From a virus (taxonomy: Duplodnaviria; Heunggongvirae; Uroviricota; Caudoviricetes), in IMG/VR virus record IMGVR_UViG_2562617151_000007, positions 1 to 17,695 of that record: a stretch of 17,695 nucleotides of DNA, one strand, 5' to 3'. Below the pieces are notes generated by a model that saw only the letters and a list, made by a program, of their open reading frames with translations, had not been told where the DNA came from and made no database searches. Numbering within the stretch: position 1 is the first letter of the stretch; each line of letters starts with the position of its first letter. Positions 1,351 through 2,022 of this stretch are shown here, one piece after another. The translations under genes were made by a program, and so were the position numbers.

Positions 1351-2022
1351 ATGGTGATTGATGCAATGTTAAGCGTTCAGATGACTCCACAAGCAAAAGT
1401 TAGCTTCGAGGAGCAATGTTTTTTTCATGCTTCAGGTCTTGTTGTTGCCCCAATAAATGTTGGAGCATTCTCCTACTTTGGCGCTAATTGTATGCTCGGC
1501 GGCTTTACGATGGGTAGATTCTGTTCAGTTGCTCCAGGAGTAAAAATTGGCCTTGGCGAGCATGAAACTGGGTATTTTTCTACGCATCCTTTTTTCTTTG
1601 GCTCAAAAAATGGTTTTAAAATCCCTGATGGTATAGGAATGCAACGCGACCTCTCTCAACAGAAGCATGGTATACCAAGAATTGGTCATGACGTATGGAT
1701 AGGTGCAAATGCGGTTATCAGGCGAGGTATAACTATTGGTACTGGCGCTGTTATTGCTGCTGGCGCTATTGTCACCAAAAATGTCGAGCCATATTCAATC
1801 GTAGGTGGCGTTTCTGCAAAACACCTAGGGTACAGATTTGAGGAATCAATCATCAAAGAGTTACTGGATAGCCAATGGTGGGAATATGATTTAAGCTCAT
1901 TTATTGGGATTGATACAAGGACACCGACGACTTTTTTAGAGCAGTTTAATGCTGTAAAAGATAAAAAGAAGGCATCTTATAAGAGATTTACAATTCTTCC
2001 ATCCGGTGAAATTGTTGAATAG
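1351..2022 (+). CDS. Hexapeptide-repeat (left-handed beta-helix) acetyltransferase, XAT (CatB/Vat)-like
   Basis: 223-aa ORF with consecutive hexapeptide repeats ([43 protein letters not shown]) and an HPFFFG loop motif like xenobiotic acetyltransferases. Sits between integrase and tailspike, where P22-like phages carry gtr/oac conversion genes. Start codon uncertain (ATGs at 1351, 1366, 1381). Confidence 0.75.

Follow-up and report, generated by a model that had tools for sequence, protein, structure and literature searches.

What does an enzyme that resembles an antibiotic acetyltransferase do in the conversion slot of a prophage? The question is raised by a 17,695-nucleotide stretch of a Caudoviricetes virus (IMG/VR record IMGVR_UViG_2562617151_000007, positions 1 to 17,695; hereafter the window), in which an uninterrupted open reading frame (ORF; 1351-2022, plus strand, 223 residues) is flanked by a tyrosine integrase gene and by a convergent gene for a P22-type tailspike (Table 1). 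A first-pass annotation, made by a model from the letters alone, had described a CatB/Vat-like acetyltransferase gene between integrase and tailspike, and had proposed either an unusual cytoplasmic route to receptor modification or a small-molecule or antibiotic acetyltransferase carried as cargo. The location is confirmed by the open frame and by the strong head-binding match of the tailspike. As to function, sequence comparison and analogy with known systems make it likely, in our view, that the gene encodes a cytoplasmic capsule O-acetyltransferase, matched to Escherichia coli hosts with the K107 capsule and serving the lysogenic conversion of the phage's own receptor. This view is carried by the fold class of the enzyme and its conserved catalytic histidine, by a cassette swap relative to phage CUS-3, by an exclusive co-occurrence with K107, and by relatives that sit in kps capsule loci beside homologous polymerases.

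An acetyltransferase of the XAT class

The protein matches the Pfam models Hexapep (9.6e-12) and Hexapep_2 (5.2e-11), which places it in the hexapeptide-repeat superfamily, and among solved structures it is closest in sequence to the acetyltransferases of chloramphenicol (type B) and of streptogramin A (E 3e-26 to 8e-20). Two motifs pointed out in the first-pass annotation, an HPFFFG loop and a C-terminal WWEY, are both located in the translation, at residues 79-84 and 176-179, respectively. His71 lines up with the histidine of the GHRTDW segment in CatB (structure 6pu9), which we take to be the catalytic histidine, and both His71 and the H79 of HPFFFG are invariant in the 21 closest clade members. 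An AlphaFold model built on the family alignment (predicted local distance difference test score (pLDDT) 87) has its short beta strands in register, with the loop that follows His71 (residues ~71-105) modelled at low confidence (pLDDT 57-65). When this model was compared with the PDB using Foldseek, ranks 1-39 were taken by CatB and Vat structures only (E 5e-9 to 8e-7; template modelling (TM) score 0.41-0.55), and a maltose acetyltransferase first appeared at rank 40. Judged from these alignments and the model, the protein is a left-handed beta-helix enzyme of the xenobiotic acetyltransferase (XAT) structural class (CatB/Vat, referred to as LbH_XAT in CDD) with the catalytic His kept, in agreement with the earlier description of a soluble, XAT-like hexapeptide acetyltransferase. 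The likeness to CatB/PaXAT and Vat includes the fold, an extended loop with the catalytic His and a C-terminal WW-containing helix, whereas the N-terminal 50 residues of the window enzyme do not align and the superposition is moderate. By its scores, the enzyme is not a member of the Vat or CatB families proper: the NCBIfam equivalog model for Vat (NF000311) gives 99.6 bits, where 300 are required, and that for CatB (NF000490) gives 97.4 bits, where 350 are required, and the top NCBIfam match, the phosphonate-associated hexapeptide family (phn_thr-fam), reaches 120 bits, under its cut-off of 201.

A resistance enzyme, that is, a CatB-type chloramphenicol or a Vat-type streptogramin A acetyltransferase carried as phage cargo, would account for the nearest solved structures and, besides phn_thr-fam, the nearest named NCBIfam models being Vat and CatB, for the conserved catalytic His, and for the label 'chloramphenicol acetyltransferase' that one database source gives to a cluster member. 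However, the equivalog scores fall far below their cut-offs, the Foldseek identity to the top CatB and Vat structures is 26-40%, with sequence alignments that begin only near residue 52, and the name given by the NCBI Prokaryotic Genome Annotation Pipeline (PGAP) is the generic 'CatB-related'. Among the plasmids of PLSDB no relative above 46% identity was found, and DNA and protein searches of deposited phage genomes returned no close copy, the only relatives there being at most 46.5% identical and in Gram-positive phages. The contexts of relatives outside E. coli that are described below are capsule loci or phage receptor-binding modules in 11 of 11 cases and resistance contexts in 0 of 11. 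In addition, XAT-class enzymes are, as far as sequence tells, ordinary polysaccharide O-acetyltransferases in E. coli, because they are found both in kps loci for ribofuranose (Ribf)-3-deoxy-D-manno-octulosonate (Kdo) polymers and in the O127/O90 and O88 O-antigen clusters. In the kTYPr InterPro table, the region-2 acetyltransferases of K13_K23, K19, K104 and K131 are all assigned to CDD LbH_XAT, and the two O-antigen clusters (L106 5611-6264 and L107 5637-6230) contain 'CatB-related' XAT-like genes whose products are 38-41% identical to the window protein. The opposition that had been drawn between capsule acetyltransferases and XAT features is therefore false, and the idea of antibiotic or small-molecule cargo finds no footing in scores, plasmids or contexts. 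We consider a resistance function extremely improbable, and an annotation as 'CatB-related' or 'chloramphenicol acetyltransferase' should not be taken here as antibiotic resistance. A role in phage defence was likewise looked for, and the PADLOC models gave no match for the acetyltransferase or for four neighbouring small ORFs.

The K107 capsule as putative substrate

The acetyltransferase gene is present in ten of 5,426 complete E. coli genomes, always adjoining the tailspike gene. In one of these, LSC52, the kps locus is composed of kpsMT, a region 2 encoding a 1169-residue and a 329-residue protein, and kpsSCUDEF, and no hexapeptide (XAT) acetyltransferase is encoded in this region 2. Just 22 of the 5,426 genomes have region 2 of the LSC52 type, and each of the ten genomes that carry the acetyltransferase gene belongs to this group (hypergeometric P ~1e-25, or 7e-21 with duplicate strains discounted). 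The corresponding capsule type, K107, is a newly defined group-2 type that the kTYPr authors have linked to invasiveness (PMC13171606). The O-antigens of the hosts belong to the O17/O44/O73/O77/O106 family in LSC52 and A10 and to O16 in AH21A060; because the gene-bearing hosts differ in O-antigen yet have one kps type, the surface structure that they have in common is the capsule. The O-antigen was rejected as a common receptor on the same grounds, both O16 and the O17 family being represented. This co-occurrence does not reflect a single integration event, as the cassette has been integrated independently at at least five chromosomal sites in E. coli: argW in GF4 (at tRNA-Arg beside yfdC, with the integrase annotated intS), dacD in LSC52, ybhB/bioA in AH21A060 and two further sites, with torT integration seen in A10, AVS0578, 2018-10-1CC and a second GF4 prophage. 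The 90% identity cluster of the acetyltransferase has 161 members, and the named members that we looked at are all from E. coli.

The structure of the K107 capsule can be predicted from its polymerase. A model of a homologue 75% identical to the K107 polymerase (pLDDT 90) matches the ribofuranosyltransferase/phosphatase part of Haemophilus Bcs3 and a dedicated polysaccharide ribofuranosyltransferase, and in a fold search it also matches the beta-Kdo transferases WbbB (TM 0.60-0.67) and KpsC. A PDB sequence search for a KrkA GT140 structure, with the polymerases of K107 and of the related locus L003 as queries, returned only Bcs3. In E. coli K13, K20 and K23, which differ only by O-acetylation, the Ribf-Kdo backbone is the product of KrkA alone, and a 41% identical KrkA homologue has been described in sequence type 131 (ST131) (PMC12887879). 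Going by the model, the architecture of the K107 polymerase is that of K13 KrkA, and the K107 capsule is predicted to be a Ribf-Kdo polymer made by a KrkA-like bifunctional polymerase. K107 region 2 is present in O25b:H4-ST131 strains as well as in the O16 strain AH21A060, which fits the published ST131 homologue; the K107 polymerase may be that homologue. The region-2 enzymes of the Ribf-Kdo kps loci (K13 'vatD', also referred to as K13_K23_9, K19_3, K104_10 and K131_8) are like the window enzyme in their XAT class and, as is proposed for the latter, in having a KrkA-type polymerase as partner (PMC12887879, PMC13171606). They differ from it in being chromosomal and encoded in cis, whereas the window gene would be supplied by a phage in trans to a K107 locus without an XAT gene of its own. 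The 329-residue K107 protein (L096 31815-32804) has weak alpha/beta-hydrolase and TPR matches, and a PDB sequence search with it gave TPR noise only; it could be an alpha/beta-fold acetyltransferase, an esterase or something else.

Outside E. coli, the next relatives of the acetyltransferase are 46-66% identical and mostly metagenomic, and a scan of a species-representative genome collection gave, among the matches listed, relatives of at most 50% identity only. We inspected 11 such contexts. Eight, with relatives of 46-59% identity, are kps-type capsule loci (L003, L090, L091, L092, L094, L114, L115 and L116), holding kpsM/T, kpsC/S, kpsD/E and often kpsF, kpsU or kdsA, and in these the acetyltransferase gene adjoins, or lies at most three genes from, a gene for a full-length K107 polymerase homologue of 1141-1228 residues (70, 60, 46, 35, 28, 28, 23 and 23% identity). 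In L003, where the polymerase is 70% identical to that of E. coli, the acetyltransferase gene stands exactly at the position of the gene for the 329-residue protein in K107. The window gene is itself phage-borne, and it is tied to a kps polymerase locus in trans only, via host co-occurrence. A further connection is seen in the kps locus of L091, in which a 741-residue pectate-lyase and S74 protein (3896-6121) is encoded adjoining the acetyltransferase and has, over 675 residues, 28% identity to the window tailspike. Other pectate-lyase or beta-helix proteins are encoded within these kps loci, close to the acetyltransferase gene or adjoining it, namely in L114 (1747-2742), L090 (4629-6458) and L116 (6128-7999), and those of L090 and L116 match the window tailspike weakly (22-24% identity, E ~1e-9).

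The other three contexts are prophages, in which the gene lies near tail-fibre or tailspike genes. In L005, a P2-like element, it is next to tail-fibre genes, and in L008, a lambdoid prophage of Pseudomonas putida, it follows the tail-tip genes. In the metagenomic phage contig L117, a gene for a 56% identical acetyltransferase is convergent with that for an 815-residue tailspike, of which residues 158-815 are 61% identical to the window tailspike body and the N-terminal adaptor is different. A side observation concerns L008, where the 50% identical acetyltransferase (10001-10693) is encoded 1.7 kb downstream of a 645-residue tail protein (6382-8319) with a faint match to SASA (sialate O-acetylesterase-like); the two may form an acetylase/deacetylase pair.

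A different surface glycan could in principle be the target, be it O-antigen units on undecaprenyl diphosphate, enterobacterial common antigen, colanic acid or the lipopolysaccharide core, and the XAT-like enzymes of the O127/O90 and O88 clusters as well as the classical O-antigen conversion by P22-like phages would agree with this. However, at least two unrelated O-antigen clusters are combined with one kps type in the hosts, the closest relatives of the enzyme (from other species, at the 46-59% identity given above) sit in kps loci and not in O-antigen clusters, and a homologue of the partner tailspike is encoded within a kps locus. We regard another glycan as a very unlikely target. With regard to the receptor modification suggested in the first-pass annotation, the cytoplasmic part gains strong support from the genome association and from the contexts of the relatives, whereas the O-antigen gives way to a group-2 capsule as the likely receptor.

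Under our model, in which both the substrate and the position acetylated are inferred, as are expression in the lysogen and an effect on phage adsorption, the capsule O-acetyltransferase would be a soluble, acetyl-CoA-dependent enzyme, probably a trimer, using His71 as general base by analogy with the solved XATs and with NeuO, the acetyltransferase of CUS-3. It would transfer acetyl groups onto a hydroxyl of ribose or of Kdo in the elongating K107 polymer, in the cytoplasm of the lysogen and before export by KpsMT/KpsED, and acetylation in this compartment is feasible because group-2 capsules are polymerized inside the cell. Its gene travels as one cassette across phage types with the tailspike body, which would recognize this capsule, and the receptor of the phage would be chemically altered after lysogeny, that is, lysogenic conversion would take place. 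The expected outcome is likely to be protection from superinfection by K107-specific phages, together with a serological O-acetylated (OAc+) variant.

A cassette exchanged on a CUS-3-like prophage

Window positions 1-1195 are 97% identical to positions 192-1386 of CUS-3 (blastn, int region) and positions 4071-4841 are 95% identical to the CUS-3 sequence comprising the tailspike head-binding domain, the intergenic region and the start of ant. The gene order in CUS-3 is attL, int, neuO, siaK1 (the endosialidase tailspike), ant and mnt. The window element is thus a CUS-3-like P22-type prophage in which neuO and the endosialidase body have been swapped for the acetyltransferase gene and another tailspike body. 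The earlier statement that the gene occupies the slot between int and the tailspike gene where P22-like phages keep their conversion genes is correct. The arrangement is less unusual than was implied: CUS-3, a close relative, has in this slot the gene for NeuO, a soluble hexapeptide enzyme.

To our knowledge, the K1/CUS-3/NeuO system has so far been the textbook and essentially sole case of an E. coli group-2 capsule being O-acetylated by a prophage enzyme. The system described here resembles it in the phage backbone and the int-tailspike slot, in having a soluble left-handed beta-helix enzyme paired with a tailspike for a group-2 capsule (proposed in the present case), and in the use of argW and bioA as integration sites. 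In both systems the gene is confined to hosts with the cognate capsule (here ten of ten, within the 22 K107 genomes) and is retained by prophages that decay. Protection of K1 cells from K1 phage by NeuO has been demonstrated experimentally; prophages of the CUS-3 kind integrate at argW and bioA, and as they decay they keep neuO (PMC9659370). In contrast to this likeness of arrangement, the two enzymes are not orthologous, the match to NeuO (structure 3jqy) being limited to the generic hexapeptide core (residues 112-157, E 8.9e-5). In addition, neuO is co-directional with the tailspike gene of CUS-3, whereas the window gene is convergent with its tailspike gene, and the target of NeuO is polysialic acid, whereas that of the window enzyme would be K107, predicted to be Ribf-Kdo. 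We therefore see here a CUS-3 chassis with a second, non-orthologous acetyltransferase, putatively matched to a different capsule.

The classical conversion enzymes of P22-like phages, gtrABC in P22 and oac in Sf6, are encoded in the same int-tailspike slot and are integral membrane proteins that modify the O-antigen at or beyond the inner membrane; such membrane-bound gtr and oac enzymes are required for Wzy-dependent O-antigens. The proposed purpose, a change made after lysogeny to the polysaccharide that the phage itself uses as receptor, is the same. In contrast to these enzymes, the window enzyme is soluble and would have to act in the cytoplasm, which fits an ATP-binding cassette (ABC) transporter-dependent capsule.

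A further difference from neuO is found in the 5' part of the gene. neuO undergoes phase variation through tandem copies of the heptanucleotide AAGACTC (poly-psi), variable in number (VNTR), whereas the window gene has only a T7 homopolymer, and no NeuO-like 5' heptanucleotide VNTR or other tandem repeat is found anywhere in window positions 1100-2040. In a T6 allele of this tract the frame moves to the ATG at 1416, giving an N-terminally shortened acetyltransferase of 201 residues. A10 and both copies of GF4 have T6, the window and seven other copies T7. Of public contigs, 15 encode exactly the 201-residue T6 product, while 421 encode one of the full-length forms and 177 the other; T6 is a genuine but minor allele. 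The T7/T6 tract may serve as a switch by slippage, may mark a lineage or may in part be an assembly error.

The tailspike is composed of a P22-type head-binding domain (residues 1-113, nucleotides 4070-4408), a pectate-lyase-fold body and a C-terminal S74-type chaperone region. In addition to the L117 protein mentioned above, the tailspike of the lytic phage PSK1 is related to it, at 54% identity; a literature search for the receptor of PSK1 gave nothing relevant. Two tailspike alleles (A and B) are present among the E. coli copies (compared for the window, L001, L002, L101, L103 and L108), which are 81-84% identical overall with identical last 88 residues. In residues ~400-600 the alleles are only 49-59% identical, while the adjacent acetyltransferase protein is at least 99% conserved. 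By comparison of the sequences, this pattern suggests diversifying change in the substrate-binding part.

Several points weigh against the capsule assignment. Twelve of the 22 genomes with K107 region 2 do not have the acetyltransferase gene, so that it must be dispensable. The kTYPr label K107 was itself assigned from the lengths and domains of the genes and from the size of the locus (14,254 versus 14,255 bp) and not by sequence comparison. A search for promoters around the gene gave one site where 2.8 are expected by chance, and so does not exceed the chance level. Strain GF4 is doubly lysogenic, with P22-like prophages at argW (L098) and torT (L108), one having a type A and the other a type B tailspike and both a T6 copy of the acetyltransferase gene; two cassette-bearing phages in one host mean that any exclusion is incomplete, or that it was off since both copies are T6. 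In another prophage type, integrated at yfgI (5001-7583 of both L104 and L105), a tailspike body similar over 57% of the length is found with a different N-terminus and no adjacent acetyltransferase gene, and three of the genomes with this body gave no match to K107 region 2 at megablast sensitivity. Finally, the co-occurrence with one capsule type could mirror the host range of the tailspike without the enzyme acting on the capsule. This confounding is countered by the kps-embedded relatives, because they indicate the capsule independently.

The last point can be turned into an explanation of its own, in which the substrate is a soluble precursor or an unrelated metabolite, or the gene is a hitch-hiking moron, and the restriction to K107 is the host range of the tailspike. 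The tailspike gene accompanies the gene in all cases, so that the confounding is real, the best NCBIfam match of the enzyme is to the phosphonate-associated family, although below the cut-off, and the minor T6 allele shortens the N-terminus. Against this, chromosomal relatives without a nearby phage stand beside or near a homologous polymerase in eight kps loci, which phage host range cannot explain; the gene is intact in two decayed prophages, and the protein is conserved next to a tailspike whose centre has diverged, as given above. We consider this explanation improbable and retain the capsule O-acetyltransferase as the preferred one. A more elaborate form of the latter, to which we give little credence, would be a co-evolving 'modify-and-recognise' unit, by which K107 would be split into prophage-determined OAc+ and OAc- serological forms, the T7 tract would be a contingency switch, arrived at convergently with the VNTR of neuO, and the tailspike alleles would be fitted to the acetylated and the non-acetylated capsule, explaining the double lysogeny of GF4.

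The main relevance lies in capsule typing, phage-host specificity and the annotation of 'CatB-related' genes. Capsule genotyping from the kps locus only would miss phage-encoded acetylation, and the kTYPr authors have pointed out that genes outside the locus must account for serotype pairs, such as K18/K22, of which one member is acetylated and the other is not (PMC13171606).

Gene start, flanking signals and decay of the prophage

Two start codons are available for the acetyltransferase. The ATG at 1366 (218 residues) is more likely than that at 1351, because PGAP annotates every full-length copy in E. coli from this codon, at which the closest homologues begin as well. The region from 1262 to 1388, which spans both, is identical across the three aligned copies (window, LSC52 and A10). 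Downstream of the gene, the GC-rich hairpin (stem ATAGCGCATCCCTGCGCTAT) and the T-run (ATTTTAAATA) are, as read from the sequence, likely to be a terminator common to the convergent acetyltransferase and tailspike genes.

Table 1. Features of the window discussed in the text, with positions, strands and supporting evidence.
Feature	Position	Strand	Evidence or remarks
Tyrosine integrase, CUS-3/IntS (argW) type, left prophage end	1..1158	+	Pfam Phage_integrase, Phage_int_M, Arm-DNA-bind_3
Exchangeable cassette (acetyltransferase gene and tailspike receptor-binding body)	1196..4070		CUS-3 identity stops at 1195, resumes at 4071
Weak sigma-70-like promoter match, TTGTCA-16-TATGGT	1328..1355	+	9/12 positions; upstream of or overlapping the start region
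XAT-class (CatB/Vat-like) left-handed beta-helix O-acetyltransferase, proposed capsule O-acetyltransferase	1366..2022	+	218 residues (223 from ATG 1351)
T7 homopolymer, codons 23-25 of the acetyltransferase gene	1419..1425	+	Alignment of E. coli copies
GC-rich hairpin, 8-pair stem, followed by a T-run	2019..2038	+	Between the convergent acetyltransferase and tailspike genes
Tailspike, proposed K107 capsule depolymerase	2042..4408	-	Pfam Head_binding 8.8e-66, Pect-lyase_RHGA_epim; weak Peptidase_S74, End_tail_spike
Antirepressor (Bro-N and P22_AR_C), P22-like immI region	4509..5387	-	Pfam; 5' part 95% identical to CUS-3 ant
Junction of a ~22-kb internal deletion	8419..8729		PHROGs and collinear comparison with the intact 41.3-kb NRZ14408 phage

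The window prophage is defective, although its integrase, acetyltransferase and tailspike genes are intact. According to PHROGs, a gene for a gp16-like DNA transfer protein (6724-8565, minus strand) stands immediately before a truncated O-like replication gene (8713-9378, minus strand), after which come cII, cI, N and genes for an HNH nuclease, RecT and Gam; the deletion spans gp20 through the capsid, portal, terminase, lysis, Q, nin and helicase genes. An E. coli prophage disrupted by IS1 also retains an intact acetyltransferase gene. In NRZ14408, the cassette is found on a complete P22-like genome that forms a separate linear record (L110, NZ_LT599830.1, 41,305 bp) with terminase fragments at both ends, a layout in line with a circularly permuted assembly, which may reflect excised or replicating phage DNA. 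The later NRZ14408 assembly CP158426.1 gave no match to the acetyltransferase. The HNH endonuclease gene of the window (12685-13212) is part of the early-left region, downstream of the gene for the N-like antiterminator, and the NRZ14408 phage has an HNH gene at a similar position.

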